From Candidatus Avispirillum sp. (GTDB lineage Bacteria; Bacillota; Clostridia; Oscillospirales; CAG-272), in contig JAZQVW010000140.1 of assembly GCA_045632025.1 (NCBI GenBank), positions 1-41,975 on the forward strand: a stretch of 41,975 nucleotides of DNA. Reading direction: 5' to 3'. This document shows, one piece after another, positions 1,566 through 30,659 of the stretch. The notes beneath the pieces are model-generated. The model was not told the origin of the DNA and did no database searches. It saw only the letters and a program-made list of their open reading frames with translations. The translations under genes and the position numbers were made by a program. Position 1 is the stretch's first letter, and each line of letters opens with the position of its first letter.

Positions 1566-3125
1566 ATGCTACCATATGTAATAACAGGGGCAATTGCACT
1601 TATCGTTGGTCTCATCATCGGTCTTCCCTGCGGAATCGCATACCGCAAGAAGGTTGCCGAAGCGGCTATCGGAAGCGCGGAGCTCCAGGCTAAAAAGATT
1701 ATTGCAGACGGTCTGAACCAGGCGAAAGCTGATGCGGCAGCGGCAAAGAAGGAAGTTCTTATAGAAGCAAAAGAAGAAATGCTCAGAAGTAAGAACGAAT
1801 TCGAACAGGAAATTAAAGAACGCCGTAGCGAGCTCTCAAGACAGGAACGCCGAGTTCAGCAGAAGGAAGAAAATCTGGATAAGAAGACAGAAGCTCTTGA
1901 AAAGAAGGACGAAGTTCTCCAGAAGAAGATTCAGGAAAACGACGAAACAAAGGAAGAGCTGCAGAATCTTAAAACTGAAGCAAGAATGGCGCTTCAGCGT
2001 ATATCCGGTATGACAGCAGAGCAGGCAAGACAGAAGCTTATCGACGATATGGTTGATGAGGTTCGTCACGAGCAGGCAAAGAGAATGGTTGAGCTTGAAG
2101 AGGAATTCAAGGACGCAGCTGATGATAAGGCGAGAAATATTATCTCCCTTGCTATCCAGCGCTGCGCAGCTGACCACGTTGCCGAAATCACAGTTTCCAC
2201 AGTATCTCTCCCCAGCGAGGATATGAAGGGACGCATCATCGGTCGTGAGGGTAGAAATATCCGCACCATCGAAACACTTACAGGCGTTGATCTTATTATC
2301 GACGACACACCTGAAGCAATTACAATTTCCAGCTTTGATCCTATCAGAAGAGAGGTTGCAAGACTCGCTCTTGAAAAGCTCATCTCCGACGGTAGAATCC
2401 ATCCCACAAGAATCGAAGAAATGGTTGAAAAGGCTCGCCACGAGGTTGAGGTTTCAATCAAGAAGGCGGGCGACGCCGCAACGTTCGAAACAGGTATCCA
2501 CGGTCTTAACAACGAGCTTGTTAAGCTTCTCGGCCGCCTGAAGTACAGAACAAGCTACGGCCAGAACGTTCTCCGCCACTCTATCGAGGTTTCCCTTCTC
2601 TCCGGTATTATTGCGGACGAGCTTGGCGTTGACAGCACACTTGCTAAGCGCGCAGGTCTTCTCCACGATATCGGTAAGGCGCTGACAGCAGAGCTTGAGG
2701 GATCCCACGTTCAGCTCGGTGTTGACACAGCGAGAAAGTATAAGGAGGGCAAGGAAGTTCTCCACGCGATCGAAGCGCACCACGGTGACGTTGAGCCTCA
2801 GACAATCATCGCTATGATCGTTCAGGCAGCGGACGCAATTTCTGCGGCAAGACCCGGCGCAAGACGCGAAAATCTTGAAAACTACATTAAGAGACTCACA
2901 AAGCTTGAAGAGATCGCTAAGAGCTTTGAGGGTGTTGAAAAATCCTTTGCAATCCAGGCAGGCCGTGAGGTTCGTATTATGGTTAAGCCTGAGATCATCA
3001 CAGACGATAAGATGCCCTTCGTTGCTCGAGACATCGTTAAGAAGATCGAGGAAGAGCTTGAATATCCCGGACAGATCAAGGTTAATATCATCAGAGAAAG
3101 CCGCGCTGTTGATTACGCAAAGTAA
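1566..3125 (+). CDS. rny: Ribonuclease Y
   Basis: N-terminal membrane helix, long charged coiled coil, KH domain ([26 protein letters not shown]) and HD domain (LRHSIEVS…LLHDIGKA). GGAGG RBS sits 5 nt upstream. Confidence 0.97.
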
Positions 3126-3206
3126 AAAGGTAAGCTAACGTCTTACAAAATTCCGTGGCGAAAGCCGTTCATATATACTTAATATAGAGCTATAACGGAA
3201 ACAATC

Positions 3207-3234
3207 AGGGACTGCATTTGCAGTCCCTTTTTTG
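3207..3234 (+). terminator. Intrinsic terminator after rny
   Basis: AGGGACTGCA/TGCAGTCCCT stem followed by TTTTTTG. Confidence 0.7.
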
Positions 3235-3263
3235 CGCTGTATTGGCCTTCGCTTATTTTAATG

Positions 3264-3370
3264 ACGTAGGGCGGGGGTCTACTCCCGCCGTTATTAATGC
3301 AATCTTACGTTTTGCATTTTATAATTTTGTTTGTGTTTTATGGCGGCGGGAGCGAGCCCCCGCCCTACGG
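3264..3370. repeat. Inverted pair of a ~28-nt GC-rich hairpin unit (ACGTAGGGCGGGGGTCTACTCCCGCCGTT / CGGCGGGAGCGAGCCCCCGCCCTACGG)
   Basis: 3264-3292 and 3344-3370 are near reverse complements separated by an AT-rich ~50-nt spacer. A third copy lies at 5810-5837. Confidence 0.75.
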
Positions 3371-3558
3371 GATAGACGGCAACTTTCGCTCAACCCGCAT
3401 GGGGAGGCTTGGCAGACGACTGATGGTTGCTCCTACAAAACTTGACTCCCCAAACTTCCCGTGATATACTAATTGTAAGCAGAAATCCAAATTTTTTTGA
3501 CAAACCACTTGACTGTAAAGCAACTTTATAGTGTATAAACGATACGGAGGTGATATAA

Positions 3559-4338
3559 ATGACCATTAAAGAAGTTGAGCAGATATTATCCGTATCCCGC
3601 GCTAACATTCGTTTTTACGAAAAAGAAGGATTGTTAACTACAGCAAGAAAGTCCAATAATTATCGCGATTATAGCGAAGAGAATATACAGGAATTAAAGA
3701 AAATAATTCTATTCCGAAAGTTGGGCTTTACCGTTGACGAAATCAAAAAAATGCAGAGCGGTGACTTAAAGCTTGATAATGCTGCAAATGATAATATTGC
3801 CCGTCTTGAACTGTAAATTGAAAATCTCAAAGGAGCGTTGAAGCTTACAAAAAGATTGGCAAGCGAACACTCCGATTTTCAAGACTTGGATGAAAACTAC
3901 TATTTTGATGTATTGGTTTCCGAAGAAAAGAATGGAGCAAAATTTGTAGACATTTTAAAAGATTATCTACAATTTCAATCTGACAGATTTGACGATATGT
4001 GGAAGCTGGTATTCTTTCACGATTTCAAAAATTCGAGAAAAAAGCATGGAACTCTTGCCGCTGTTATCGTACTTTTTGTTATTTGCGTAGCACGGGGATT
4101 GTCATATAAATTTATTTGGCAATCAGGACCTTTTTGGGAAGGCTTTTTATACCCTTTTATCTTATTTGCAGGTGCTTCTTTAATCACAACACCTCTACAT
4201 ATGCTTTCAAAAAAATCACCTAAAGTTGCTTCTGTTATAGCAGGAATTCTTTTGTTCCTAATTATTTTGTTTTTTGCAGGACTTGCTATTCTTATAATTG
4301 TTTTAATTTTGAATTCGATTTTCCATTTTTGGTTTTAA
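3559..4338 (+). pseudogene. MerR-family regulator with C-terminal membrane domain, interrupted by one in-frame TAA (3814-3816)
   Basis: ORFs 3559..3816 and 3838..4338 are in the same frame, separated only by TAA plus 7 sense codons. The N-terminus is a MerR HTH (IKEVEQILSVSRANIRFYEKEGLL…YRDYSEENIQELKKIILFRKLGFTVDEIK). The stop falls inside the expected dimerisation helix. The downstream ORF has only a TTG start, 2 nt after a GGAG. Confidence 0.6.
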
Positions 4339-4372
4339 TAAAACATTGGACAAATCGAGAAAGGTACGTACA

Positions 4373-4564
4373 ATGAAAAACAAAAATGACATATTAAGAT
4401 TAATTGCTTCTACATCACTTTTTCTTGCAACAATAATAAACTTTTCAAATAATTTTATTGAATTACCTGAGGCTATACATTTCTTGGGTGTTACTCTATT
4501 ATTAACCACTTTAATTCTTTATATTATTATTCTTATTAGATATTTCAAAGACAAACGCTCTTAA
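4373..4564 (+). CDS. Small two-helix membrane protein, hypothetical
   Basis: ATG at 4373 preceded by GAGAAAGG. The product has two hydrophobic helices. It lies in the AT-rich islet co-directional with its neighbours. Confidence 0.45.
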   Translation: MKNKNDILRLIASTSLFLATIINFSNNFIELPEAIHFLGVTLLLTTLILYIIILIRYFKDKRS

Positions 4565-4596
4565 ATTATATAACAACTTACAAAGAGAGACTTTTA

Positions 4597-5124
4597 ATGG
4601 AAATAACAGCAAAATGCAAGTTTGATTTTGAAACTATAAAAGCTCTGACACATTTAGCAGTTTTCAAAAAATCAAACCCGAAAAAGCAATTCATTTTAAT
4701 AACTATACTTGATACAATCGCCATTGTATTATCGCTTTTGGAAATTATTCTTTTTTCAGCACCATTCGGTTGGATTTTTCCTTGTACTATATTTATGCTT
4801 CTGTTTATAAACTACATATATTTCCTCTTGCCCAAGGTAAGATATAAGGCATTGGCAAAAATGAAAACAGCTGAAAACGAATATATTTTCTATGATAATT
4901 CCTTTAAGATATTCGCTAAAAACGAAGTATATAACGGCGAAGCTGATATCGAATATTCTCTTCTTGTTTGTGCATATGAAACATCCAAATATTTCTTCTT
5001 GTATCAAACAAACAACCAAGCTTTTATCGTTGACAAATCTACCCTTGTAGGAGGAACTGCAGAGGAAATAAAAAGCAAGCTTAGTTATTTCCTCAAAAAC
5101 AAATATTTCGTTTGCAGATACTAA
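4597..5124 (+). CDS. YcxB-like membrane protein
   Basis: Two adjacent TM helices followed by a soluble domain (…YIFYDNSFKIF…YSLLVCAYETSKYFFLYQTNNQAFIVDKSTL). This layout is characteristic of YcxB-like proteins. AGAGAG RBS. Confidence 0.6.
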   Translation: MEITAKCKFDFETIKALTHLAVFKKSNPKKQFILITILDTIAIVLSLLEIILFSAPFGWIFPCTIFMLLFINYIYFLLPKVRYKALAKMKTAENEYIFYDNSFKIFAKNEVYNGEADIEYSLLVCAYETSKYFFLYQTNNQAFIVDKSTLVGGTAEEIKSKLSYFLKNKYFVCRY

Positions 5125-5139
5125 AAGGAGGTAGTGTTA

Positions 5140-5733
5140 ATGAAAAAAGTATTAAATGCATTTAAGAATCTTGGCTTTGAAATATTGGGTATTATACTTG
5201 TTATAATACTTGGAGTATTTTTAATTTTAATGTTGCCATTTGACTACATAAAATACAAAAGATCTCTTTATTACAAAACTGAACATAAAAAATATACCCT
5301 CTTCGCGGCATCGGGATTTGCATTTGATTTGTATAATGAGATATTGAAGCACAATTTGCCTATCAAATACATTCACAATCCGAACAACGATGATTTAGGT
5401 TGCGGTTGGTTTGTTTATAACAGCACGCTTATCATTCTTAATGTTCTTGATTTTGAATATGATACTAAAAACAACACGTGGGCTTTTTGCTGTGAAGATC
5501 CTGAGGAAGAAACCACAGAAGCCAGAAGCATTATGACCCTTGACGAATATATAGAAACAAGCATCGCAGATGCAAATAAACTTGCAGGAAAAACCATCTG
5601 CGACAATGCGGTTGTCTTAATAGAAGCGGATATGTTTGATGATCCGGAGCTTGCAAAGCAGGAAAAGAGATTTGTAATCTATGATGATAATCTTGCCGAA
5701 GCGCTGAAGGCTTTTTGTGATAAAAATATTTAA
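5140..5733 (+). CDS. Membrane-anchored hypothetical protein
   Basis: ATG at 5140 lies 8 nt after AAGGAGG. One N-terminal TM helix. No recognisable domain. Confidence 0.55.
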   Translation: MKKVLNAFKNLGFEILGIILVIILGVFLILMLPFDYIKYKRSLYYKTEHKKYTLFAASGFAFDLYNEILKHNLPIKYIHNPNNDDLGCGWFVYNSTLIILNVLDFEYDTKNNTWAFCCEDPEEETTEARSIMTLDEYIETSIADANKLAGKTICDNAVVLIEADMFDDPELAKQEKRFVIYDDNLAEALKAFCDKNI

Positions 5734-5738
5734 TTTAA

Positions 5739-5766
5739 AGCACCCTAAGGGGTGCTTTTGATTTTT
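5739..5766 (+). terminator. Intrinsic terminator closing the AT-rich islet
   Basis: AGCACCC/GGGTGCT stem followed by TTTGATTTTT. Confidence 0.7.
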
Positions 5767-5809
5767 ATAAAACGGACGACCGATGCTGAATTATAGAATT
5801 GTATTAAAA

Positions 5810-5910
5810 CGGCGGGAGTAAACCCCCGCCCTACGTTATCAAATTTTGTGTAAGCCAAGCCCAGACTCCTCACCCACCGCAAAGCGGTCCCCCCTCCCCC
5901 AGGGGAGGGC
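5810..5910. repeat. GC-rich palindromic repeat cluster (unit 1 copy plus ~54-nt unit 2 copy)
   Basis: 5810-5837 CGGCGGGAGTAAACCCCCGCCCTACGTT matches the reverse complement of 3264-3292. 5857-5910 is the reverse complement, with a few substitutions, of 39706-39758. Confidence 0.8.
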
Positions 5911-5960
5911 TTAATGGCGAAACATTTGTTCTTTTTCTTGCTATTTCCAAGGAATTTTGC

Positions 5961-5989
5961 TTGACTATAGAGGGGTTTTGTTATATAAT
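5961..5989 (+). promoter_or_regulatory. Sigma-A type promoter upstream of recA
   Basis: TTGACT (5961-5966), 17-nt spacer, TATAAT (5984-5989). Confidence 0.55.
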
Positions 5990-6040
5990 TATTATGTATA
6001 TTTATAAACATTTCACTATAACGAAAGGCAATATAAAATT

Positions 6041-7150
6041 ATGGCAGCAAAGAAGAAAATCACAGTTGCGGCAGCAGAAGATACAGGCGCTGAAAACAAG
6101 AAAAAGGCCCTTGCTACCGCTATTTCTCAGATAGAAAAGGCTTACGGAAAGGGAACTATCATTAAGATGGGCGAAAGCCCCGAAATGAACGTTTCCGTTG
6201 TTTCCACAGGCTCCATCGGTCTTGACCTCGCTCTCGGTGTCGGCGGATTCCCCCGCGGTCGTATCGTTGAGATCTACGGTCCCGAATCCTCCGGTAAAAC
6301 AACTATCGCTCTCCACGCAGTTGCAGAGGTGCAGAAGCTTGGCGGCGAGGCGGCTTATATTGACGCTGAGCACGCGCTTGACCCTGCATATGCAAAGAAT
6401 CTGGGCGTTAACATTGACGAGCTTCTGGTTTCTCAGCCCGACTCCGGTGAGCAGGCTCTTGAGGTTTGCGAGGCCCTCGTTCGCTCAGGCGCTATCGACA
6501 TCATCGTTATTGACTCCGTTGCGGCTCTCGTTCCTCAGCAGGAAATTGAGGGCAATATGGGCTCCTCCCACGTTGGTCTTCAGGCTCGTCTCATGAGCCA
6601 GGCTCTTCGTAAGCTCTCCGCAACTATCAACAAGACAAACTGTATCGTTATCTTCATCAACCAGCTCCGTGAAAAGGTTGGCGTTATGTACGGCAACCCC
6701 GAAACAACAACAGGCGGCCGCGCTCTTAAGTTCTACGCTTCCGTTCGCCTTGACATCAGAAAAACTGAGGTCCTCAAGGCAGGCAGCGAGCCTTACGGTA
6801 ACAGAGTTAAGTGTAAAGTAGTTAAGAACAAGGTTGCTCCCCCCTTCAAGGTTGCAGAATTTGACATTCTCTTCGGCAAGGGTATCTCCAAGATGAGCGA
6901 AATGGTTGATATGGGCGTTGAAACAAAGGTTATCGAAAAGAGCGGCTCCTGGTTCTATTACGAGGGCGAACGCCTCGGCCAGGGTAAGGACAACGCGCGC
7001 GCAACAATCGAAGCAAACGCTGAGCTTGCAGCTGAGATCGAAGCAAAGATCAAGGCGGCTATGACAGCAAACCTTGAAGAGGAATTTGATATGCCCGAGG
7101 ACGACGAGGATCTTGAAATCGACCTCATGGGACTTGATCTCGACGAATAA
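6041..7150 (+). CDS. recA: Recombinase A
   Basis: Walker [10 protein letters not shown], the IDSVAAL and FINQLREK blocks, and an acidic C-terminal tail. Confidence 0.98.
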
Positions 7151-7176
7151 ATTTTAAATCCAACAGGTGAAACGCC

Positions 7177-8298
7177 TTGATCTGCAAAAAGATTACTTAT
7201 AACAATTTCAGAAACATCGAAAATGAAACGCTGACGCTTTCGCCGGGGGTAAACGTTATCCGCGGCGAAAACGCTCAGGGAAAATCCAATATGCTCGAGG
7301 GCATCTATTTCTTTGCCCGCGGGCGTTCTTTTCGCGCTTCAAAGGATAAGGAGCTGATCCGCTTTGGCGAGAGCGAAGCAAATCTCTCCCTTGATTTCAC
7401 CCGTGACGAAAGCGAGAGAGTTTCCACTCTCACAGCTACCATCCCATCCCAAGGCAAAAAGATCATCACCCGAAACGGAGCCAAGCTATCATCTCTCAAG
7501 GAAATGATAGGAAACTTCCGCGCAGTTCTTTTTTGTCCTGCCCATCTCACCCTTGTTGACGGAGGACCGTCCCTTCGCCGCAGCTTTCTCGATATCGCTC
7601 TTTCTCAGCTCTATCCTGCCTATCTTGACAGCCTTTCAACCTATAACAGAGCTCTGGGACAGCGAACAGCCCTTCTTCGCGAAGCGGCCGCAGGAAAAAA
7701 GATAGATAACTATATGTGGGAGATCTATGCAGACCAGCTGGCAAGCTCGGGTGCCGTGATCGCCGCCAGACGATGGGAATACACCAACGGACTCTCCGAC
7801 TCCCTCTCCGTTTTCTTCTCGGAAATGACAAACGGAAGGGAAGTGCCGCTCCTGACTTATAAGAGCGACGCCATTGAAGCCGATATGACCTATGACGAGA
7901 TCATACGTGACGGCGAAAAGCTGCTTTTCGACTCTATTATGGCCTCTCTTGAAAAGGATATTAAATATACAATGAACTCCCACGGAGTTCACCGCGATGA
8001 TATCGCCATTAAAATAAATCAGAAGGACGCCCGCCTTTACGCCTCTCAGGGACAGAGAAGATCTCTTGCTCTCTCAATGAAGCTGGCGGAGGGCGAGCTT
8101 TCCAAGGCCGCCACAGGCGAATTTCCCGTTTTTCTTCTGGACGACGTTTTAAGCGAGCTTGACCGCAACAGAAGAGGATATATCCTCGGATGTCTTCGTG
8201 ACAGACAGATAATCGTTACCTCCTGCGAGGACGATCATTTCAAGGGCGATAACGTGAAATTCATAACTGCCTCAGGCGGAAAAATTATTGAAGAATGA
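7177..8298 (+). CDS. recF: DNA replication/repair protein RecF
   Basis: N-terminal FRNIE…GENAQGKSNMLEGIYFFARGRSFRA (RecF-type Walker A) and C-terminal SQGQRRSLALSMKLAE…FLLDDVLSELD (ABC signature plus Walker B). TTG start. Confidence 0.85.
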   Translation: MICKKITYNNFRNIENETLTLSPGVNVIRGENAQGKSNMLEGIYFFARGRSFRASKDKELIRFGESEANLSLDFTRDESERVSTLTATIPSQGKKIITRNGAKLSSLKEMIGNFRAVLFCPAHLTLVDGGPSLRRSFLDIALSQLYPAYLDSLSTYNRALGQRTALLREAAAGKKIDNYMWEIYADQLASSGAVIAARRWEYTNGLSDSLSVFFSEMTNGREVPLLTYKSDAIEADMTYDEIIRDGEKLLFDSIMASLEKDIKYTMNSHGVHRDDIAIKINQKDARLYASQGQRRSLALSMKLAEGELSKAATGEFPVFLLDDVLSELDRNRRGYILGCLRDRQIIVTSCEDDHFKGDNVKFITASGGKIIEE

Positions 8299-8936
8299 AA
8301 ACGTATTTTATAAAAGACATTTTTGAATCCCGACGCGGAATGGGAATCGAGCTTATGAGCGACGACATAGCGGAAGAAAACGTTGTTTTCTACGTTGGAG
8401 CAAAGACCATACGCGAATTGGGACTTTCAAAGAGTATGGACATAGACGAGGTCTGCTTTTCTCAGCTTGAGGATGCTCACAAGCTGAGGGCTGCGGTCTA
8501 TAAGGCGGCTGATATTCTTGCCGCAGGGGACTACAGCGTTTCAAAGCTTCAGAAAAAGCTGACCGATAAGGGAATAGACCGCGAAACCGCCCTCGCCGCC
8601 GCCAAATATATGGAGGAGCGAGGATATATCAGGGAAGCTGAGCAGGCCGCCCGCCTTGCAGAATATCTTGCAAAAATCAAGCTCCGCGGCAAAAAGCGTG
8701 TTTATCAGGAGCTTCTTCAAAAGGGCTACGGCAAATTCGCCGTAAAGCACGCGGTTGAATTCGTTACCGACGAGGAATACTACGAAATTTTAAAAGAGCA
8801 TATCAAAAGAAAATACAAAACGCCTGCCGCCGACAGAAGGGAACTGGAGAAAAGGGTTGCCGCCCTTGTCCGCCAGGGATTTTCGGCAGGAGATGCCCTT
8901 CGCGCACTGCGAGAGGCAGATGAAAACGAAATTTAA
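8295..8936 (+). CDS. recX: RecA regulator RecX
   Basis: Repeated three-helix modules (…KLTDKGIDRETALAAAKYMEERGYI…ELLQKGY…LVRQGFSAGDALRAL) and position in the recA operon. Its start overlaps the recF stop (ATGA). Confidence 0.75.
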   Translation: MKTYFIKDIFESRRGMGIELMSDDIAEENVVFYVGAKTIRELGLSKSMDIDEVCFSQLEDAHKLRAAVYKAADILAAGDYSVSKLQKKLTDKGIDRETALAAAKYMEERGYIREAEQAARLAEYLAKIKLRGKKRVYQELLQKGYGKFAVKHAVEFVTDEEYYEILKEHIKRKYKTPAADRRELEKRVAALVRQGFSAGDALRALREADENEI

Positions 8937-8958
8937 TTTATTTTTGAGGAATACAAAA

Positions 8959-10308
8959 ATGAACAAGAAAATGAGATCTAAGAAAAAGGTTGGCTTTATC
9001 AGCCTTGGTTGCCCCAAGAATCAGTGCGACACCGAGGTTATGCTTCATACTCTTATGAGCGCAGGCTATGAGATCACAGCCGAGGAAACTGAAGCAGATG
9101 CCGTTGTTATAAACACCTGCGGCTTTATTGAAAGCGCAAAGCAGGAGGCTATTGATAACATTCTTGATATCGCCTGGCTTAAGGAAAACGGAAAGCTTCA
9201 GGCGCTTATCGTTACAGGTTGCCTTTCCGAAAGATACAGAGAACAGCTGATCAACGAAATGCCCGAGATCGACGCTATTATCGGTATCGGCGCTCTTGAT
9301 AAGATCACAGACGCTGTTGACTCCGCTCTCTTTGGTAGCGACAAATATATCGCTCTCCCCGAAAAGGATGCTTGCCCCCTCGGAGGCGACCGAATCATCA
9401 CAACAGGCGAGACATTCGCTTATCTTAAGGTCAGCGAGGGATGCGACAACAGATGCACATACTGCGCTATCCCCTCTATCCGCGGCGGACTTCGCTCCCG
9501 CACGATCGAGGATTGCGTTAAGGAGGCAAAGGACCTTGATGCAATGGGCATCAAGGAGATCGTTGTTATCGCTCAGGATACGACCGCTTACGGACGCGAT
9601 AACTACGGCGAGCTTATGCTCCCCAAGCTTCTCCGCGCTATCACAGAGGAAACAAATATCCCCTGGATCAGAATCCTCTATTGCTATCCCGATAAGATCA
9701 CAGACGAGCTTATCGCAGAAATGAGAGATAACGACCGTATCGTTAAATATATCGACCTTCCCATCCAGCACATCAGCGACCATATGCTCGCTGCAATGAA
9801 CCGCCACGGCGACGGCGCTTGCGTTCGCGATGCTATCCGCAGACTCCGCGAGGGCGTTCCCGGAATCGTTATCCGCACAACAGCTATCGTTGGCTTCCCC
9901 GGAGAAACTGAGGAAGACTTCACAGAGCTTTGCAAATTCGTTAAGGAAGCTAAGTTTGAGCGCTTTGGCGCCTTTACATACTCCAGAGAAGAGGACACTC
10001 CCGCATACGACTTCGACGATCAGATCGACGAGCAGGTAAAGCAGGACAGATACGATATCCTTATGCGCCATCAGCTTGAGGTAAGCGGCGACTACAACGA
10101 GCAGTTCGTCGGCACAACTCAGATGGTTCTCTGCGAGGGCTTTGACCCCGTTTCCGAGGCATATCTCGGCAGAACCTACAGAGACGCGGCTGAGATCGAC
10201 GGCAAGATCTGGTTTACTGCTCATCGCCCCGTTAACGAAGGAGAATTCGTTTCCGTTAAGATAACAGAAGCCCTTGATTACGACCTTGTTGGAGAAGTTA
10301 TCGTTTAA
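8959..10308 (+). CDS. rimO: Ribosomal protein S12 methylthiotransferase RimO
   Basis: UPF0004 N-terminal domain (ISLGCPKNQCDTE), radical SAM CDNRCTYC motif and a C-terminal TRAM domain. The ATG at 8959 is preferred over the longer ORF-track start, which overlaps recX. Confidence 0.93.
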   Translation: MNKKMRSKKKVGFISLGCPKNQCDTEVMLHTLMSAGYEITAEETEADAVVINTCGFIESAKQEAIDNILDIAWLKENGKLQALIVTGCLSERYREQLINEMPEIDAIIGIGALDKITDAVDSALFGSDKYIALPEKDACPLGGDRIITTGETFAYLKVSEGCDNRCTYCAIPSIRGGLRSRTIEDCVKEAKDLDAMGIKEIVVIAQDTTAYGRDNYGELMLPKLLRAITEETNIPWIRILYCYPDKITDELIAEMRDNDRIVKYIDLPIQHISDHMLAAMNRHGDGACVRDAIRRLREGVPGIVIRTTAIVGFPGETEEDFTELCKFVKEAKFERFGAFTYSREEDTPAYDFDDQIDEQVKQDRYDILMRHQLEVSGDYNEQFVGTTQMVLCEGFDPVSEAYLGRTYRDAAEIDGKIWFTAHRPVNEGEFVSVKITEALDYDLVGEVIV

Positions 10309-10310
10309 AA

Positions 10311-11081
10311 ATGATCAAGGTTTCAACGCTTTTTTCAGGTTCAGCAGGAAACTGCACGCTTCTTCGAACAGATAATACCGCCGTTCTGGTTGACTGCGGC
10401 AGAAATTGCAAGGCTGTTTGCGAAGGACTTCGCGCCGAGGGGCTGGAGCTTTCGGATATTTCCGCAATTTTCATCACCCACGAGCATAAGGACCATATAA
10501 GCGCACTTGACGTTATGATGAGAAGGTGCGCTATCCCCATCCACGTGACCTCCCCCTCCGCTCCCGAGCTTTGTAGGGGAAGAAGCGCGGCTGAAAACGC
10601 CGTAATTCACCGCGGAGTTCTCTTTGAGGAAAGAGTTGGGGATATAACCCTTCGCTCCTTCGCTCTCCCTCACGACAGCGCCGCCCACGTTGGCTACGTT
10701 GCAACTGACGACTCGGGAGACCGCGCAGGAGTTGCAACAGATATGGGCTTTGCCACAAGAGATGCCTTTGAAAGCCTTTGCGGATGCCGCCAGATAGTTC
10801 TGGAGGCAAACCACGATATCGCAATGCTGAGACGCGGTCCCTATCCCGAATTTCTCAAGGCGAGAATACTCTCCCGCGGAGGACATCTTTCAAACGTTGA
10901 ATGCGCCGCTCTTTGCCGCGGACTTGCGGAAAACGGAACACAGGCCTTTCTCCTTTCACATCTCAGCTCAGAAAATAATACACCCGCGCTTGCTCTTGAA
11001 ACAGTTCAGTCCTGCCTTGACGAAGGAAATATCAAGGCTCACCTGAAGGTTGCACGACGCAGCGAGATTACGGATCTATAA
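10311..11081 (+). CDS. MBL-fold metallo-hydrolase (YycJ-like)
   Basis: HxHxDH motif (ITHEHKDHISAL) plus downstream His/Asp ligands. Confidence 0.85.
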   Translation: MIKVSTLFSGSAGNCTLLRTDNTAVLVDCGRNCKAVCEGLRAEGLELSDISAIFITHEHKDHISALDVMMRRCAIPIHVTSPSAPELCRGRSAAENAVIHRGVLFEERVGDITLRSFALPHDSAAHVGYVATDDSGDRAGVATDMGFATRDAFESLCGCRQIVLEANHDIAMLRRGPYPEFLKARILSRGGHLSNVECAALCRGLAENGTQAFLLSHLSSENNTPALALETVQSCLDEGNIKAHLKVARRSEITDL

Positions 11082-23557: not shown

Positions 23558-23770
23558 ATGGCTGTATCTTATAAAAAGTTATTTCATTTGCTGATCGACA
23601 AGGGGATGACCAATGCTGAGTTGATGGAGAAAGCTGGCTTTAGTGCAAATATCATTACCCGAATCAAGCGTGACAATTATATTTCTCTCGATAGCATTGA
23701 GAAGATTTGCAAAACTCTGAACTGCGGTGTCGATGATATCTTAGAGTTCACCATGGAGGAAGAAGAATGA
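23558..23770 (+). CDS. XRE/Cro-type helix-turn-helix regulator (~70 aa)
   Basis: MTNAELMEKAGFSANIITRIKRDNYISLDSIEKICKTLNC is a classic HTH. The ATG at 23558 follows GAGGGGG, whereas the alternative ATG at 23540 would be almost leaderless. Confidence 0.85.
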   Translation: MAVSYKKLFHLLIDKGMTNAELMEKAGFSANIITRIKRDNYISLDSIEKICKTLNCGVDDILEFTMEEEE

Positions 23771-26727
23771 ATAATATTGCAGTAAAATTTATAGGCAAAG
23801 AATATTCCATACCAAAGGATGTTATAACCTATATTGATTTGCTTGATTTTGCTGATAACGTTCAGAAACAGTTAATGGCAGATTTTATCTCTATAATCAA
23901 AGGCAGAATTCAAAACAAAAATGTTGGTTTGATTGACGACGAGGATTTGCGAGCACAGATTGAAAAGCAAGTTGGACGATTTATTGCCAAACTTTGCGAT
24001 CAAGGGATTTTTACACGTACAGTTAACGACTATCTTAACGGTAACAAGGGATATGAGTATTTCTCCAAGGTAAATAAAGCGGCTCTCGAAAAGGTTAAAT
24101 CTTTTCTTATGCAGAGATTGGATTCTTTGCAAGAAGGTTATGAAGATGCTGTCCAAAGAGCTGAATCACATGTTACTGGAATGGGATTTTCTATTTGGTC
24201 GAGTAGCTTTGTTAATCATGCCATTTATGCTGCAATGGAAGCTTCCACCATCAACAAACAGGAAAAAGAAGCTTCTGCAAGATATCAAAAAGAAATTAGT
24301 GAACTGTGTTCCAAATTGGAGTCAGAATACGATAGAGCGACCAGTCAATATATAAACAATGAATATATCCCCAATATGGAAGCAGCACTTACTGTATTGG
24401 CTTATGAGTTGCTTGATAAATACGTGAACGATCTGATTGCAAACGATAAATTTGATAGAAGAACATTGGGATTCGTTGACATTAGCCGTTCAAATGATCT
24501 GTTGAAAAACCTAACCCTATCCAACAGCAAACAGGCTATACTCGAAAATGCTTTTGTCGCCTGCCCTTACAACATAGCTGTTTATATGCACGCAATGAAA
24601 TTGGAAATGTTGGATGAAGATACTTTTGAAACAGCCAATGTTTTCAAGCAAGGTTCAAAAATTATTTCGTTTTTGAAAGAATCTTTGGGTACGGCTGATT
24701 ATCCCAACTTTGTTGAGCCGAATTATTACAGTGCTTCTTTGTTGGCACGTTACGAAAATAAAAGCGCGAATGATGTCCTGTATCAGCACACAGCCTCTTA
24801 TGCAAATGCTGTGATTAGAGAGTATGAAAAAATTGTTAGAGCACTCGATAATCTCAATCAATGCAGGGACTACTTGCGCAAATTGAATGATGATGAGATT
24901 TTGTTAGGAGAAGGAACCTCAAAACGATTGGCAAAATCACTTGTTTATTCGATTGCACCGAATGACAACTGGAATATTCTTATGAAACAATGTGGTCACG
25001 CTGATCTGCTCGAAAGATTATTGGCTATTATGCCTGTAGGTTCGACCTTTGGAAGTAAAGAGGATTGCGATTCCTATTTAACGGAAGCTTTGTTCAATGC
25101 GTTGGAAGTAGCCCGTAAAGATTTGGCTCAAAGGATTTCAGAGAGCAGAGCTCGTGCTGAAGCCGAACGACAGAAACTTGAGGCGCAAAAAAGAAAGAAA
25201 CGTATTAAGACAACAGCTATTTTGTGTGCAATCGTTGCTGTTATTATTGTTGCTTTCTCTTTGCCCTCCATAATAGAAAATGCAAAGATCTTAAAAAGAG
25301 AAAGTTGTGTTGAAAAACAAATTCAAGCAGTAGTTGAACCATTAGAAAGCAAAATGGAGAATGCTACCGGCGTTGACATTATTATCGATTACTACTTCTC
25401 TTTGGAAAATGATTGGGACGACGAACAGTGGTATGAATGGACGTTTAGTGTTGAACTTCCTATTTTTGATGAATACAGAAAATCCAACAGCGCAAACGAG
25501 CAATCACTGTTAGAAGTAATGGATGTTTGCAAATCTCTTGTTGAAATTTATGATGATGTTTACGATGATTTAGATTTTGACTTCAAGGACGAAGATGTAA
25601 GAATTGTAATGGACTTTTCTGGTGGAAATTTCGGTTCGCTAAAAATCCATGATACATCTACATCAGAAACATTCTATTACGAAGAATATGGCGGAGATCG
25701 TTATCTTCATTCCTCTGATACTGAATATGTATTAGACAAAAATTCCGAAGTTGTTCAAGCGACAGAAAAGGAAGCAGCGTACAATGATGCCCTTTCTCTT
25801 ATGACTGCCCAAAAATATGATGAGGCTATTGAGATATTTGCAAAATTAAGTGGATATAAAGACAGTGTTGGCAAAATTACTGAATGTGAAAATGCTATCA
25901 TCGAATTAAAGTATAATGATGCTCTTGCTTTGATGTCTGCGCAAAAATATGACGATGCTATTATCATATTCACGGAATTGGGAGAATACAAAAACAGCGC
26001 ATCCAAGATAGTCGAATGTAACGAAGCTATTGCAGCCGTTATCGAAGCAAAATATAACGAAGCATCTTCTCTTATAGTCGAAGGAAAGTACAACGAAGCC
26101 TTATTGATTCTTGATGAAATCGGCGATTATAAAGATGCAGTTGCTTTGAAACAAAAATATGCGCTTCTCACCTGTGAATCTGGAGATGTTATCACATTTG
26201 GAACATACGAACAAGACAACAATCTTGATAATGGTGCAGAAGCTATCGAGTGGCTTGTTTTGAACAGAGACGGCAACAAGGCTCTTGTAATAAGCAAGTA
26301 TTGCCTTGAGCAAATGCCTTTCAACAACACTTTAGCGTCAGTTACATGGGAAAATTGTACAATTAGAAAGTGGCTCAATAACGATTTCTTTGATACAGCG
26401 TTTTCTACAGATGAAAAAACCTCGGTCCTTGTGTCGAATATCAGCTACCCGGATGATGTGGACCACGAAGAACCGACAAGAACAACAAAGGATAGAATTT
26501 TCCTTCTTAGCGAGAACGAAGCATTAGTGTATTTTGACTCGGATTCTGAAAGAGCAACGCAAACGACTGAATATGTTGGAGCTTTGCATTGTTACTGGAT
26601 TCTTCGTACAAATGGAAGTGTTTCTAACGTTGCCCATGTTGATACTTCTGGGTATGTGGGTTACTACGAAAATGTTGACCGTGAATGGTATATTCGTCCA
26701 GCCATGTGGATTGAGACAAGCGAGTAA
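23767..26727 (+). CDS. 986-aa single-pass membrane protein: ~475-aa helical cytoplasmic domain of unknown function, TM helix, and an extracellular region with three ~45-aa repeats and a DUF6273-like C-terminal domain
   Basis: Its start overlaps the HTH stop (ATGA), with a GGAGGA RBS. The TM segment is TTAILCAIVAVIIVAFSLPSII, preceded by a KRKKR cluster. The repeats have the form YNDALxLMxAQKYDxAIxIFxxLGxYKDS. The C-terminus (GDVITFGTYEQD…IEWLVL…IRKWLNNDFF…RIFLLSENE…YWILR…IRPAMWI) matches, from memory, a domain common in Firmicutes surface proteins. Confidence 0.8.
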   Translation: MNNIAVKFIGKEYSIPKDVITYIDLLDFADNVQKQLMADFISIIKGRIQNKNVGLIDDEDLRAQIEKQVGRFIAKLCDQGIFTRTVNDYLNGNKGYEYFSKVNKAALEKVKSFLMQRLDSLQEGYEDAVQRAESHVTGMGFSIWSSSFVNHAIYAAMEASTINKQEKEASARYQKEISELCSKLESEYDRATSQYINNEYIPNMEAALTVLAYELLDKYVNDLIANDKFDRRTLGFVDISRSNDLLKNLTLSNSKQAILENAFVACPYNIAVYMHAMKLEMLDEDTFETANVFKQGSKIISFLKESLGTADYPNFVEPNYYSASLLARYENKSANDVLYQHTASYANAVIREYEKIVRALDNLNQCRDYLRKLNDDEILLGEGTSKRLAKSLVYSIAPNDNWNILMKQCGHADLLERLLAIMPVGSTFGSKEDCDSYLTEALFNALEVARKDLAQRISESRARAEAERQKLEAQKRKKRIKTTAILCAIVAVIIVAFSLPSIIENAKILKRESCVEKQIQAVVEPLESKMENATGVDIIIDYYFSLENDWDDEQWYEWTFSVELPIFDEYRKSNSANEQSLLEVMDVCKSLVEIYDDVYDDLDFDFKDEDVRIVMDFSGGNFGSLKIHDTSTSETFYYEEYGGDRYLHSSDTEYVLDKNSEVVQATEKEAAYNDALSLMTAQKYDEAIEIFAKLSGYKDSVGKITECENAIIELKYNDALALMSAQKYDDAIIIFTELGEYKNSASKIVECNEAIAAVIEAKYNEASSLIVEGKYNEALLILDEIGDYKDAVALKQKYALLTCESGDVITFGTYEQDNNLDNGAEAIEWLVLNRDGNKALVISKYCLEQMPFNNTLASVTWENCTIRKWLNNDFFDTAFSTDEKTSVLVSNISYPDDVDHEEPTRTTKDRIFLLSENEALVYFDSDSERATQTTEYVGALHCYWILRTNGSVSNVAHVDTSGYVGYYENVDREWYIRPAMWIETSE
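25777..26175 (+). repeat. Three tandem ~135-nt coding repeats (TPR/Sel1-like helical hairpins)
   Basis: AAYNDALSLMTAQKYDEAIEIFAKLSGYKDSVGKITEC / KYNDALALMSAQKYDDAIIIFTELGEYKNSASKIVEC / KYNEASSLIVEGKYNEALLILDEIGDYKDAVALKQKY. Confidence 0.7.
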
Positions 26728-26770: not shown

Positions 26771-27409
26771 ATGAATGTCAAAGATTGGGGACAACGTATT
26801 TCTCACAGAACAGATATAAGCATGGGGCTTGTTCATCTTACCAAAGGAGACAGAGAACTTAGTTCTCTTGCTGTTTTGATGAAAATTCTCGAAGAAAAAA
26901 CAATATTGGGCAGCACAAACAAAATAGTAGGCGGACATCCAAGAGGGTTTATATGTGGTAGTGATCCCGTTGTTTGCTTTCAAGATGTTCCTTTACATTC
27001 TCTCTCAGAAAACATTTTTTGGGAACAGCAACTACATGATAAAACCCCGGAAGCGCCAATAAGGTATGCTCCTTTTGGACTACGCTTTGATAAAAGGTAT
27101 GTTTTTAGAAATGGCGGAAGGCCTGTCATTTACGAGGATACCAACATCGCAAAAAATTTTCTTCCCGAAAATGAATACTGGCGAATTGTTAAACTCGATT
27201 TGGACAGCGACGATAATATTGTTGACTGGACACATGAACGAGAATGGCGAATCAAGGGAGATTTTCATTTCGAACTTAGTGAGGTAGAAATTCTTCTAAG
27301 CGACCAAACTTCTCTAAAGAAATTCAACAGATACTGCAAAGAGAAGAATATGGAGAACCTTCTAAATGAAATTAAAGGAATTGTGATTCTCAAAAGCCTT
27401 CTGTTCTAA
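26771..27409 (+). CDS. AbiGi-like (abortive-infection family) protein, 212 aa
   Basis: ATG at 26771 lies 7 nt after GGAGGTG. The blocks VVCFQDVPLHSLSENI, YAPFGLRFDKRYVFRNGGRPVIYED and WTHEREWRIKGDF parallel the C-F-x-D-x-P / YG-x-G-I / P-V-x-Y / EREWR pattern I recall for AbiGi-type proteins. Confidence 0.6.
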   Translation: MNVKDWGQRISHRTDISMGLVHLTKGDRELSSLAVLMKILEEKTILGSTNKIVGGHPRGFICGSDPVVCFQDVPLHSLSENIFWEQQLHDKTPEAPIRYAPFGLRFDKRYVFRNGGRPVIYEDTNIAKNFLPENEYWRIVKLDLDSDDNIVDWTHEREWRIKGDFHFELSEVEILLSDQTSLKKFNRYCKEKNMENLLNEIKGIVILKSLLF

Positions 27410-27413
27410 GTCC

Positions 27414-27467
27414 AGTTATGGAGCACTTCGTTCGTTGTTCGGATGAGGTGCTCCATAACTATTTTTC
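27414..27467 (+). terminator. Strong intrinsic terminator splitting the cargo into two units
   Basis: 13-bp perfect stem AGTTATGGAGCAC/GTGCTCCATAACT followed by ATTTTTC. Confidence 0.7.
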
Positions 27468-27515
27468 AGTTGATGTTACTTGTCGTGAATACAAAATATA
27501 ACTTTGGAGGAAAAA

Positions 27516-28118
27516 ATGGAACTCATTATTACATTCTTAGAATCAAACTTGTTGTCTGCACTTGTTTCTGCAGTTGTTTCCGGTCTCATTGCCATAATAG
27601 GTATTCGCTTATCTTACAAGCTCTCTGTGAGCGAAACACAGAAGGCAATGGAGTATTTTAAGTCTCAGCTCACCAAGAAAGTTTATGCTTCCTCGAAACG
27701 TTCTGATATGGAATATGAGATATTCCATACGTTAGGGAGAATCTGCGGTGAGATTCATTTAGTCATGGAACGCTTTTACCCCGACAAGATGAGCTTGCTT
27801 TTATTGAACAGTGCGGAAAAGCCTACTCTAAAAGAATTGGCTAACAAAATCCATGACCTGGATATAGAATTAAATATTCATAGGGCCTTTATTCCAAAAG
27901 AAATTGTGACACTGTTTGAAGAGCTAATAAAAGACGCAGAGCAATTTTTTGATGATGCAGAAAAGCATATTGATTGTTGGGATGATACAAAGGACGATAA
28001 AAACAGAAAAGAAAAACTACGATGCACTGCCTATGAAAAGAGATTAGCATTTTACGAAAAATGGAAGTCTTCAAGTGCAAAATGTCTGGAATATCTACAG
28101 TCAAAAGAATTGGTGTAA
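27516..28118 (+). CDS. Small membrane-anchored helical protein, hypothetical (200 aa)
   Basis: ATG at 27516 lies 5 nt after GGAGG. One N-terminal TM helix (LLSALVSAVVSGLIAIIGI). The rest is charged and helical with no known motif. Confidence 0.6.
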   Translation: MELIITFLESNLLSALVSAVVSGLIAIIGIRLSYKLSVSETQKAMEYFKSQLTKKVYASSKRSDMEYEIFHTLGRICGEIHLVMERFYPDKMSLLLLNSAEKPTLKELANKIHDLDIELNIHRAFIPKEIVTLFEELIKDAEQFFDDAEKHIDCWDDTKDDKNRKEKLRCTAYEKRLAFYEKWKSSSAKCLEYLQSKELV

Positions 28119-28163
28119 AATCTGATTTTGATAAATAGTATTTTTCAAAAGGAGGGGCAATGT

Positions 28164-29747
28164 TTGAATATTAGAGATATTGAAAAAATAATAGACGATG
28201 CACACAAAGGACACGAAATTTTCAAAATGAATAAAGAGCAGGCAATTTATTCTACATTATCGACATTTGAATATTCGTGCAGTTCGGTAATGATGGCAAG
28301 TGTCTTAAATCCGTTTGCATTAAAAAGCATTACTGATCTAATGGACGCATTGAATATGGCGTTGACATGGATAAATGAACTGTGTCCCGTTTCCGACGAC
28401 GGCACTATCCAATTGGAGATGTCCGAGGAATGTAATCAACAGTGCTGTGACTTCTTGCACAATCACGCTTACCCCTATTCTGTGATTTGCAGCGGATACA
28501 TAGCGTACTCAAGAAAACGCTTCAAAGCAAATGTTGTCGATAATTGCGTTACCTTTGATCTGGCTGACAATCAAAACAATTCGGCATGGAATGATATTCT
28601 CAGAGAAGCTACGAGTAATGATTTAAGTAGCCTGTCTGCCCTCGTTAATCCTTATGAATTGTTGCGAGCAAGCGGCGAGATAAAAAAACATACCACTATA
28701 GAAAACGGAATGTTGTGCTACGCTCTATCTGGCGATGTTTTCGATGCTTTTGAAAAGATGGCACGTGCTCATTGGGAAGCCGCAAAGACTTTGCCAGAAA
28801 ACTGGAAGTTTGAGAAATTTTCTTTGGCTGAGTATAAAGAGTTTTGGATTGCTTTAACTTCCTTGTGCTATGTGCATCTTTGCAGTTGCTTTAGCATTGA
28901 AGAACAGTTGCTCAAATTGAAAAATAGTACTATAGTACAAAACAAGCAATGCATTGTTAATTTCATCAAATCTCGAACCAAACTTGACGAAAACAAGATA
29001 CTGACGCTCATTGACTACATTACTTATGAGCCGCAAAAAACAAATGTTGATATCATGTACCAACCCATAGTAGCTTTGAATGATAGTACTATAATCATCA
29101 CTCCTACTCTTTTTATGGGATCTCGTCCTGAACGAAATTTACTATCAGTTGTAAGCACAAGGAAAGATAAGGAATACTTCAACGAAGTTAACGATTTGGA
29201 AGGTTTGATGGTCTCAGAGTTGGAATCCTATGTGAAATCAGAATACATAGCAAAGCATAAACATTTGCGTGATGATTTGCCTGATCTTGATTTCGCAGTT
29301 TTAGATAAAGAGACTAACTCAGCTTTGATTTGCGAAACAAAGTGGTTTGCTCCTGCTGATTCTTCAAAAGAGGTTTACGCCAAGGAAGATGAAATAAATC
29401 ATGGATGTCAGCAAGTTGAGGATATCATGTCTTATGCTATGGCTGACAAAAAGCATTTCTTCAAGCAAGTGTTTGGTGTTGAGAATGGAGAGACGATTGA
29501 CCTGTTTTGGTGTGTTGTTGCAAAACACAACATTCGAACGCAAAACAGAATTGTTCCGGTAATAGATTTGAAGAGAATCGAAGACTTGTTTTCTTCAAAT
29601 TCTCTTAATACTGTTTTTCATCTCATACGCAACCATGAATATGAAATTAAGATGCCCGATGATGTTTCGATTACACATCAAGAAGTAGAATACGCTGGTT
29701 TTAAGTTCAAAATTCCTGCGCTTTGTTTGGGAAATATGCCAGAATAA
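28164..29747 (+). CDS. ~527-aa protein with a C-terminal PD-(D/E)xK nuclease-like motif and a large uncharacterised N-terminal region
   Basis: An in-frame TTG at 28164 lies 8 nt after GGAGG; the ORF-track start at 28128 is also possible. The C-terminal region has ELE…LPDLDFAVLDKETNSALICETKWFAP…CQQVEDIMSY, meaning E, PD, ExK and a downstream Q..Y, as in restriction-endonuclease-fold/Shedu-type domains. Confidence 0.65.
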   Translation: MNIRDIEKIIDDAHKGHEIFKMNKEQAIYSTLSTFEYSCSSVMMASVLNPFALKSITDLMDALNMALTWINELCPVSDDGTIQLEMSEECNQQCCDFLHNHAYPYSVICSGYIAYSRKRFKANVVDNCVTFDLADNQNNSAWNDILREATSNDLSSLSALVNPYELLRASGEIKKHTTIENGMLCYALSGDVFDAFEKMARAHWEAAKTLPENWKFEKFSLAEYKEFWIALTSLCYVHLCSCFSIEEQLLKLKNSTIVQNKQCIVNFIKSRTKLDENKILTLIDYITYEPQKTNVDIMYQPIVALNDSTIIITPTLFMGSRPERNLLSVVSTRKDKEYFNEVNDLEGLMVSELESYVKSEYIAKHKHLRDDLPDLDFAVLDKETNSALICETKWFAPADSSKEVYAKEDEINHGCQQVEDIMSYAMADKKHFFKQVFGVENGETIDLFWCVVAKHNIRTQNRIVPVIDLKRIEDLFSSNSLNTVFHLIRNHEYEIKMPDDVSITHQEVEYAGFKFKIPALCLGNMPE

Positions 29748-29940
29748 ATCGGAACACTGTTGGCTCGCCACCAACGGTGTTCTCGTTCTCATAAAACTAT
29801 CATTGGCAGCGTTGACAGGAAATAATGCTGTAAAAAATATATCCTCTCATACATGACAACTGAATCTAAATGTTTGACCATACGGATATTCACCTATAAT
29901 TTGTAATATCTTCAAATCTATTTGGATAACATAAAATTTC

Positions 29941-30023: not shown

Positions 30024-30053
30024 TTGACAAAAGTTTCCTGCGTATGGTATAAT
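30024..30053 (+). promoter_or_regulatory. Near-consensus extended -10 promoter
   Basis: TTGACA (30024-29), 18-nt spacer, TGgTATAAT (30045-53). Confidence 0.7.
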
Positions 30054-30059
30054 AAAGAC

Positions 30060-30283
30060 ACCGAGAGATCGGATGAAAAATGAATATTAAGTGCCACGAC
30101 AGTTACCACTGTCACCCCGTCGCTTGAAAGACAGCGACATACTTATTTATCTGCTCATTTAGAGCAAGCACTAATTAGAGTTATAGACTCGTACATACAT
30201 CGGCACGGAACATTTTTAAGCGAACAATTTTGTTCGCCTGTTTGTGTTTCCGTATCGATGTATGTGCGAGTCTTTTTGTTTTG
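30060..30283 (+). ncRNA. Candidate ~220-nt structured RNA (or terminator-containing leader) of unknown class
   Basis: It starts just after the promoter. Five hairpins are present: 30061-72, 30098-113, 30119-138, 30152-166, and a ~28-bp-arm hairpin at 30185-30273 enclosing GCGAACA/TGTTCGC. It ends in TTTTTGTTTT. The only ORF is 5 codons long. Confidence 0.5.
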
Positions 30284-30371
30284 CTCTCGCCGTGATTACA
30301 TAAAAATCGAAAGGTGGAATGCAGATGATTGTATCAAAATTTAGAATCAACAAAAACGAAAGGAGGATCGG

Positions 30372-30659
30372 ATGCAACACAAAAATTTCTTTATGGTTCC
30401 CAACCGCATCTTTGATTTAGAACTAAAGCCGAGGGACTTCACCGTGTATTGCTGTCTGCTTCGGCACAGTGACAGCAAGGACGGCTCCTGCTTCCCCTCG
30501 CGGAGAGTCATCGCAAAGGAGTGCGGTATGGATAGGAAAACCGTTGACTCTGCCATTGAAAATCTCTCGTCCCTTGGTCTGGTGAAAAAGATTCAGCGGC
30601 ACCGAGAGGATGGAACGAGAACGAGCAATCTCTACTACGTGGCAAACCTCTTGGAGTAG
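30372..30659 (+). CDS. Winged-helix/HTH protein of the element backbone (replication-initiator-like HTH)
   Basis: AAAGGAGG RBS. FFMVPNRIFDL…FTVYCCLLRHSD…CFPSRRVIAKECGMDRKTVDSAIENLSSLGLV is typical of HTH proteins found next to serine recombinases on clostridial elements. Confidence 0.7.
   Translation: MQHKNFFMVPNRIFDLELKPRDFTVYCCLLRHSDSKDGSCFPSRRVIAKECGMDRKTVDSAIENLSSLGLVKKIQRHREDGTRTSNLYYVANLLE

Follow-up and report, generated by a model that had tools for sequence, protein, structure and literature searches.

A candidate stand-alone defense nuclease, related to the C-terminal domain of Upx, on an integrated element of Candidatus Avispirillum

What kind of nuclease is encoded near the end of a small integrated element in Candidatus Avispirillum sp., and how many genes make up the functional unit to which it belongs? 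The locus consists of two open reading frames (ORFs), ORF1 of 200 amino acids (aa) and ORF2 of 527 aa, both confirmed here as real genes. They lie on the forward strand of contig JAZQVW010000140.1, in a stretch of 41,975 nucleotides (nt) that we call the window and to which all coordinates refer. An earlier note, written from the bare DNA letters, had taken the two as one unit, a small membrane protein plus a large protein with a Shedu-like nuclease motif. Our analysis favors another assignment, in which ORF2 is a candidate stand-alone, metal-dependent PD-(D/E)xK defense nuclease, encoded by a single gene and related to the anti-phage protein Upx; we give this reading a probability of about 0.6.

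The nuclease core of ORF2 and its relation to Upx

The PD-(D/E)xK motif that had been proposed for the C-terminal part of ORF2 was borne out both by the conservation of its residues and by the predicted fold. Conservation was followed in two sets, one of 37 close homologs (at least 49% identity) and a wide one of 116 homologs down to 18% identity. E346, D374, D376, E391, K393, W394, E403 and Q417 were invariant in the close set (37/37). In the wide set, D376 was found in all 116 sequences, K393 in 114, Q417 in 110, D374 in 108 and E346 in 103; position 403 was E in 109 and D in 7, and position 391 was E in 101 and Q in 12. The AlphaFold2 (AF2) model of ORF2 (predicted local distance difference test [pLDDT] of 86.7 and predicted template modeling score [pTM] of 0.83) contains the canonical alpha-beta-beta-beta-alpha-beta core, formed by helix 336-356, strands 361-366, 375-381 and 386-393, helix 401-427 and strand 446-453, with D376 and the ExK positions on predicted strands. 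By its modeled fold and its motif, ORF2 belongs to the PD-(D/E)xK superfamily, and a metal-dependent activity is predicted for it. Two details of the motif as originally drawn need correction. The upstream Glu had been placed in the segment SELESY, whose E352 and E354 are Glu in 53 and 22 of the 116 sequences, respectively; the best-conserved candidate is E346, in the segment NDLE. The Asp of the “PD” pair, D374, is indeed conserved, although slightly less so than D376, which is the invariant one.

Outside the core, P301 (116/116), the triplet E323-R324-N325 and the residues D11, Y105 and W214 were conserved across the family, indicating that the N-terminal part of ORF2 is also under constraint. 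The description of this region as uncharacterized is supported. A Cys/His cluster within it had been suggested to bind metal, which is unlikely, since its positions are not conserved (C90 is mostly R and, in the wide set, C94 mostly A, and C95, H99 and H101 are variable).

When the ORF2 model was compared to the PDB with Foldseek, a single entry matched at an E value of ≤0.001, namely 9wuf, which is Upx (E of 1.2e-5, probability of 1.00, 529 aligned columns, template modeling [TM] score of 0.42 and root mean square deviation [rmsd] of 9.1 Å). The same entry came out as the top match (9wuf_A, E of 0.046) of a 63-column profile of the motif, made from the 116 sequences and searched against 177,635 PDB sequences. 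This alignment is ungapped and sets the family pattern lpDIDlaiyd...lllcElKW against PGDIDLLAWR...VLVIECKD of Upx (residues 1157 to 1179, within 1151 to 1192), with D376, E391 and K393 in register with D1161, E1176 and K1178. The latter three were defined as the Upx active site by Zhou et al. (PMC13099982), and Evans et al. found that the E1176A substitution abolished both Upx defense and terminase-induced toxicity (PMC13601566). Upx has been shown experimentally to be an anti-phage nuclease that loses defense when its ExK motif is mutated, that acts on single-stranded DNA and that is triggered by a phage protein (PMC13099982, PMC13601566).

Profile comparison extended this relationship well beyond the motif. 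A tblastn search of plasmid records yielded six Upx homologs (Salmonella, Sinorhizobium, Bosea, two Deinococcus and Clostridium butyricum); a protein homolog search with a 42-aa Upx fragment as the query had returned no candidate. Two of the six were scanned as positive controls, and both matched the PADLOC Upx model (E of 2.2e-43 and 4.2e-24). Aligned to these six with hhalign, the 116-sequence family gave a probability of 97.7% (E of 1.5e-12) over 248 columns, spanning residues 218 to 477 of ORF2 on residues 940 to 1231 of a Deinococcus Upx, and the C-terminal part of ORF2 by itself gave 98.0% (E of 2.4e-13). The homology begins approximately 120 residues before the nuclease core and takes in the helical/winged-helix-like segment and the segment with the invariant Pro. 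The first ~220 residues of ORF2, used alone, matched Upx nowhere by profile (probability of 0.2%), and residues 1 to 217 are covered by Upx only through the whole-protein structural alignment. A greedy alignment nevertheless placed the family profile in order on residues 726 to 1222 of Upx, in agreement with the 529-column Foldseek alignment; this is roughly the C-terminal domain, which spans residues 715 to 1272 in SeUpx (PMC13099982).

The resemblance to Upx is therefore to one part of it. Both are single-gene units found in a context of defense islands and mobile elements, both have a C-terminal PD-(D/E)xK core with the same D-I-D...E-x-K spacing, they share ~260 residues of significant profile homology, and ORF2, taken whole, corresponds in length to the Upx C-terminal domain and lines up with it in order. 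However, ORF2 is ~527 aa long and Upx ~1,230 to 1,270 aa. No counterpart of the N-terminal and middle domains of Upx (~700 aa) was found in ORF2, and the family proteins listed do not exceed ~600 aa. The large N-terminal part of Upx has been reported as the terminase sensor (PMC13601566) and its N-terminal domain as a second nuclease (PMC13099982). The PADLOC Upx model (PDLC02221) found no match at an E of ≤1 in ORF2 or in seven other diverse family members. ORF2 is a stand-alone homolog of the C-terminal module of Upx and not a Upx. As a separate observation on Upx itself, a Deinococcus sp. QL22 plasmid (L019, positions 1 to 6357) carries two adjacent genes for proteins of ~1,230 to 1,280 aa, of which the second is a Upx homolog; the first may correspond to the “second Upx” arrangement mentioned in PMC13601566.

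Alternative nuclease classes, family size and genomic context

Shedu (SduA, DUF4263/PF14082) was the affinity first suggested for the nuclease, and ORF2 could be imagined as a Shedu member with a new N-terminal sensor. Shedu proteins, usually encoded by single genes in defense islands, also have a variable N-terminal region before a C-terminal PD-(D/E)xK domain, and the catalytic order E...D...ExK...Q is the same. Moreover, a genuine Shedu gene is located two genes upstream in one related locus (L001), and 1 of 25 diverse C-terminal domains of the ORF2 family gave a sub-threshold match to SduA_C (E of 0.023). These domains matched DUF234, REase-ARP and SfsA equally weakly, all of them restriction-fold families. 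In ORF2, on the other hand, a different region precedes the core, Pfam SduA_C found no match at an E of ≤0.01, the PADLOC Shedu models found none, and among the 50 Foldseek matches to the PDB that were listed no entry was described as Shedu or SduA. The nearest neighbor, by structure and by profile, is Upx, and that homology reaches far upstream of the core. ORF2 is not a Shedu by the SduA_C and PADLOC models, the Foldseek comparison and the Upx profile homology, and we regard membership of Shedu with a new sensor as extremely improbable.

The same restriction-fold matches (DUF234, REase-ARP, SfsA and SduA_C) would also suit a solitary modification-dependent (type IV-like) restriction enzyme, in which the N-terminal and winged-helix-like parts would read DNA and no phage protein would be sensed. 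Like the type IV Mrr/PD-(D/E)xK enzymes, ORF2 is a solitary nuclease gene without a cognate methyltransferase and has its catalytic domain at the C terminus, and such a gene often adjoins restriction-modification (R-M) and other DNA-targeting systems. Against this, no restriction-enzyme model in PADLOC, Pfam or NCBIfam matched, there was no sequence or structure match to these enzymes, and the typical DNA-reading domain was not identified in ORF2. Its only significant relative is Upx, a protein that acts on single-stranded DNA and responds to a phage protein (PMC13099982, PMC13601566). We consider a type IV-like enzyme unlikely.

The ORF2 family is large and unnamed. A word-indexed search found 174 relatives, none with a Pfam domain or a name, and when 1.84 billion representatives were searched exhaustively with a profile, at least 1,239 matched at an E of ≤1e-3 (counted as clusters at 50% identity) and 791 at an E of ≤1e-10. 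The best 150 relatives listed are mostly full-length (~520 to 600 aa), which together with the size of the family makes ORF2 more than a chance ORF. Named carrier genomes belong to Clostridia (Lachnospiraceae, Oscillospiraceae, Ruminococcus, Jutongia, Blautia, Pseudobutyrivibrio and Caproicibacter), Pelotomaculum and Brevibacillus. Scans of ORF2 against Pfam, NCBIfam, PHROGs and PADLOC produced nothing above threshold, and no Pfam domain was found in ten distant members. A sub-cutoff match to TnsA_C (E of 0.0057), which falls on the helix after strand 3, was taken as chance, and so was a weak PADLOC SIR2 match (E of 0.018). Foldseek of the ORF2 model against viral predicted structures gave nothing significant, and PDB sequences searched with phmmer or with profiles, using all of ORF2 or a 200-aa C-terminal profile, likewise yielded no useful match; in the wide-profile search of the PDB, spurious G-gamma matches ranked above Upx. 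Some distant members carry a SEC-C zinc-binding tail (GRNDPCPCGSG..KYKKCCG) at the C terminus, detected by Pfam in 3 of 25 sampled C-terminal domains (best E of 1.1e-9).

The surroundings of ORF2 homologs were described at ~25 distinct loci, some of them collected by a related-loci search with a narrow alignment. A defense-type neighborhood was corroborated by Gabija, Hachiman, R-M, Shedu, PDC-S01, TIR and SIR2 neighbors, next to prophage morons and recombinases. One homolog starts 37 nt after a Hachiman helicase gene, in an island with TIR, SIR2-STALD and FRG genes (L002), and in another case a type I R-M operon with M, S and R subunits (L039; E values down to 0) precedes the homolog, its fourth gene ending 5 nt before the start. 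Others follow Gabija-like gene pairs (L003, L013-16, L026 and L046) or a DUF6361 gene and a helicase gene (L008), and one shares an array with PDC-S01 and Shedu genes (L001). Several lie where a prophage ends, with two serine recombinases beside them (L004-7 and L030), and family members are also present on four IMG/VR viral contigs. At L011 (positions 6020 to 10943), a member 51% identical to ORF2 has the large terminase gene of a prophage on one side and the portal gene on the other, a position made noteworthy by the fact that Upx is triggered by large terminases (PMC13601566). Downstream there is often a serine recombinase, a tyrosine integrase, or a Mob/Pre or MOB relaxase. As descriptive evidence, this context is the pattern expected of horizontally mobile defense cargo.

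Very often ORF2 homologs close the cargo, with a serine recombinase, an integrase or a relaxase as the next gene, or lie inside a prophage. This would also be expected if ORF2 worked for the mobile element itself, for example in processing, in addiction or in rivalry between elements, and not for the anti-phage defense of the host. The recombinases and elements concerned are nevertheless unrelated or at most distantly related to one another (the recombinases are ~25% identical or of other families, with 23 to 43% identity to the one in the window); some copies follow chromosomal R-M or Gabija operons at a distance of 5 to 40 nt; and a cargo position beside the recombination module is the usual place of defense genes. 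Service to the element in place of host defense seems very unlikely.

Several points weigh against a Upx-related defense nuclease, and part of them concern the protein itself. The whole-protein structural match to Upx is moderate, as its TM score and rmsd indicate, and the putative catalytic E391 is replaced by Q in 12 of the 116 family members. For the N-terminal 217 residues, relatives by sequence could be detected only within the family, and the sensing step assigned to them is pure inference. In addition, deletion of the N-terminal domain of Upx abolishes its protection (PMC13099982), so that the C-terminal domain does not protect by itself and ORF2 cannot simply copy the Upx mechanism. 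The remaining points concern the context. Around one distant member (P0212), in a variable region, there are an insertion sequence (IS) element and an FRG-domain gene but no recognizable defense genes or systems, and the proposed defense role is guilt by association over the loci described, not a statistical enrichment.

ORF1 and the carrier element

The hydrophobic segment at residues ~3 to 38 of ORF1 agrees with the single transmembrane helix that had been attributed to this protein. In the AF2 model, a long helix at the N terminus leads into a four-helix bundle, residues 62 to 197 being well predicted, and basic residues after the helix suggest, by the positive-inside rule, that the C-terminal part is cytoplasmic. 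ORF1 had no family match in Pfam, PADLOC, PHROGs or NCBIfam, and Foldseek of its model against the PDB returned only generic four-helix bundles.

With a gap of 45 nt on the same strand and no terminator in between, ORF1 and ORF2 might form an obligate two-component system, in which the membrane protein would sense an envelope or injection event or hold the nuclease inactive. All ORF1 homologs with enough readable downstream sequence (the window, L001, L042-45 and L046-48) are placed directly before an ORF2 homolog at least 83% identical to the ORF2 of the window, including one that had been shortened by the gene caller. Furthermore, the genes before the pair differ from locus to locus (AbiGi-like in the window, Shedu in L001, a 102-aa gene in L042-45, and Gabija, methyltransferase and nucleotidyltransferase genes in L046), so that the two genes move as a pair within their subclade. 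On a broader scale the association is lost, as ORF1 homologs form 11 clusters against at least 1,239 for ORF2. ORF1 is absent from L023, whose ORF2 is 87% identical, and the remaining ORF2 loci that were inspected, ~20 distinct contexts, have neither ORF1 nor a conserved small membrane protein in its place; what lies upstream there is unrelated, be it a helicase, a methyltransferase, a terminase or another gene. The generic bundle predicted for ORF1 likewise gives no informative match. We consider an obligate pair improbable. What survives of the two-gene unit described in the earlier note is that ORF1, wherever enough downstream sequence can be read, directly precedes a close relative of ORF2; as a general architecture it fails at L023 and at the ~20 contexts mentioned. 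ORF1 is an accessory confined to one lineage and not a defining component, and with ORF1 missing from most ORF2 loci, a single gene makes up the core unit. A more distant ORF1 homolog (59% identity) follows a KAP NTPase gene at L049, on a contig that ends 150 nt downstream.

The features of the locus are collected in Table 1. The strong terminator that had been placed before the pair (27414-67) was confirmed by the free energy (dG) of its hairpin, 27415 to 27459 (-34.5 kcal/mol; z of -9.35), and by the T tract that follows. A promoter scan found no convincing sigma70-type promoter between this terminator and ORF1. The TTG start of ORF2 is supported by an N terminus (MNIRDIEKIID) and a 527-aa length common to the closest homologs. 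The hairpin just past ORF2 may be a weak terminator, its T tract being poor; it was not listed by the terminator scan.

Table 1 Positions in the window of ORF1, ORF2 and their associated signals
Feature	Position	Strand	Remarks
Intrinsic terminator	27415..27467	+	~20-bp stem and T tract; terminates the AbiGi-like gene upstream and sets it apart from ORF1-ORF2
ORF1 ribosome-binding site, GGAGG	27506..27510	+	6 nt before the start; read from the sequence
ORF1	27516..28118	+	200 aa, ATG start; transmembrane helix ~3-38, then helical bundle 62-197
ORF2 ribosome-binding site, AGGAGGGG	28150..28157	+	6 nt before the start; read from the sequence
ORF2	28164..29747	+	527 aa, TTG start; stand-alone nuclease like the Upx C-terminal domain
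ORF2 residues 1-217	28164..28814	+	N-terminal region, mostly helical; family-conserved D11, Y105, W214
ORF2 residues 218-477	28815..29594	+	Helical/winged-helix-like segment, invariant P301 segment and nuclease core; Upx profile homology
PD-(D/E)xK core, residues 336-468	29169..29567	+	AF2 model and alignment
Predicted active site, E346	29199-29201	+	
Predicted active site, D374	29283-29285	+	
Predicted active site, D376	29289-29291	+	
Predicted active site, E391	29334-29336	+	
Predicted active site, K393	29340-29342	+	
Conserved Q417	29412-29414	+	
Hairpin, 13 bp	29751..29782	+	Just past the ORF2 stop codon; dG of -19.6 kcal/mol, z of -5.75

The window is chromosomal and encodes RNase Y, RecA, RecX, a MiaB-like enzyme, MnmG, ComEC, MetA, RibF and a D-Ala-D-Ala carboxypeptidase. 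Within it, an island of ~11 kb (~22.3 to 33.6 kb) has cargo with a guanine-plus-cytosine (GC) content of 37%, compared to 45 to 52% in the flanks. Its gene order is a DUF6809 protein, a 236-aa protein, a 986-aa DUF6273 membrane protein, a 210-aa AbiGi-like protein, ORF1, ORF2, an HTH_36 protein, a ribbon-helix-helix protein and a 553-aa large serine recombinase with Resolvase, Recombinase, Zn_ribbon_recom and DUF4368 domains. Past the recombinase, ordinary chromosomal genes resume (GH43, BipA and a Na/Pi transporter), so that ORF1 and ORF2 close the cargo of a small integrated element. An Rfam scan of the island found no match.

Mobilizable transposons of the Tn4451/Tn4453 type carry the large serine recombinase TnpX, TnpV and a Mob/Pre relaxase. 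We take the terminal recombinase of the island to be TnpX-like and compare these transposons with it as carrier elements only. The island resembles them in ending with a serine recombinase that has DUF4368, and related cassettes have TnpV and DUF6809 (L042) or a Mob_Pre relaxase (L008). The cargo in the window, in contrast, consists of defense-like genes and not of an antibiotic resistance gene, and the window genes that were scanned included no identifiable relaxase, unlike those of Tn4451/Tn4453.

Three other parts of the island deserve description. The 986-aa protein (23767 to 26727) has a central transmembrane segment (~478 to 509), three tandem repeats of ~35 aa (YNDALSLMTAQKYDEAIEIF...) and a C-terminal DUF6273. 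Its gene is syntenic with ORF1-ORF2 in L001 and L042-45 (53 to 61% identity), and the titles of papers that mention DUF6273 speak of diversity-generating-retroelement targets and phage receptor-binding proteins. The idea that this protein is a “split” N-terminal half of Upx was rejected, as it has no similarity to Upx. The 210-aa protein (26777 to 27409), followed directly by the terminator, is a borderline AbiGi (Pfam score of 22.2 bits against a cutoff of 22.4; PADLOC E of 4.7e-5). Its slot is filled in related cassettes by the Shedu gene (L001) or the 102-aa gene (L042), and the position thus behaves as a swappable defense slot. Finally, a perfect extended sigma70-type promoter (TTGACA, 18 nt, TG-TATAAT) is found at 30024 to 30053, followed by an untranslated leader of ~320 nt before the HTH_36 gene at 30372, with hairpins at 30119 to 30138 and 30220 to 30237 and no match in Rfam. 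This stretch (30024 to 30380) could be a regulatory leader for the replication or excision module of the element.

Proposed mode of action and significance

If ORF2 is a Upx-related defense nuclease, it would be part of the defense cargo of the ~11-kb integrated element that ends in the TnpX-like recombinase, and it would guard its host, or the element, from phages or from other DNA that invades the cell. ORF2 alone would be the functional unit, and ORF1 may tether or modulate the nuclease where it is present. The nuclease would stay inactive until infection provides a cue that works through the N-terminal 217 residues or alters the oligomeric state of the protein, and the activity then released would be centered on D376, E391 and K393. 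By analogy with the C-terminal domain of Upx, single-stranded DNA and replication intermediates are the probable substrate (PMC13099982), and nucleic acid degradation might come at the cost of the cell (compare with Upx in PMC13601566). Given that Upx does not protect once its N-terminal domain is deleted, a family of half its size must sense its trigger in a different way. On a more tentative footing, which we would put at somewhat less than even odds, the family as a whole may represent a widespread “half-Upx” single-gene anti-phage system, which retains the C-terminal nuclease module of Upx but has, in place of its terminase-sensing N-terminal domain, a compact domain of 217 residues that detects another cue, or which works as a homo-oligomer, with ORF1 as a recruited partner coupling it to the cell envelope in one subclade.

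The general kind to which ORF2 would belong, a single-gene PD-(D/E)xK defense nuclease with a variable N-terminal part, is well known. The link between this family and Upx appears to be new, as far as Pfam, NCBIfam, PHROGs, PADLOC and the literature searched show. Because none of these four collections holds a model for the family, defense-finding tools that depend on models would miss it, including in the gut Clostridia in which the close relatives of ORF2 live. The link to Upx offers a starting point, with three residues to mutate and a likely class of substrate, and the optional membrane partner allows a natural comparison between the nuclease on its own and the nuclease with an accessory protein beside it. 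The family is thus a good candidate for a new defense system, with an inferred function and a clear experimental path. The puzzle it poses is how a C-terminal module alone can sense infection and spare its host, when Upx needs its N-terminal domain, and the answer could show how Upx was assembled from modules.

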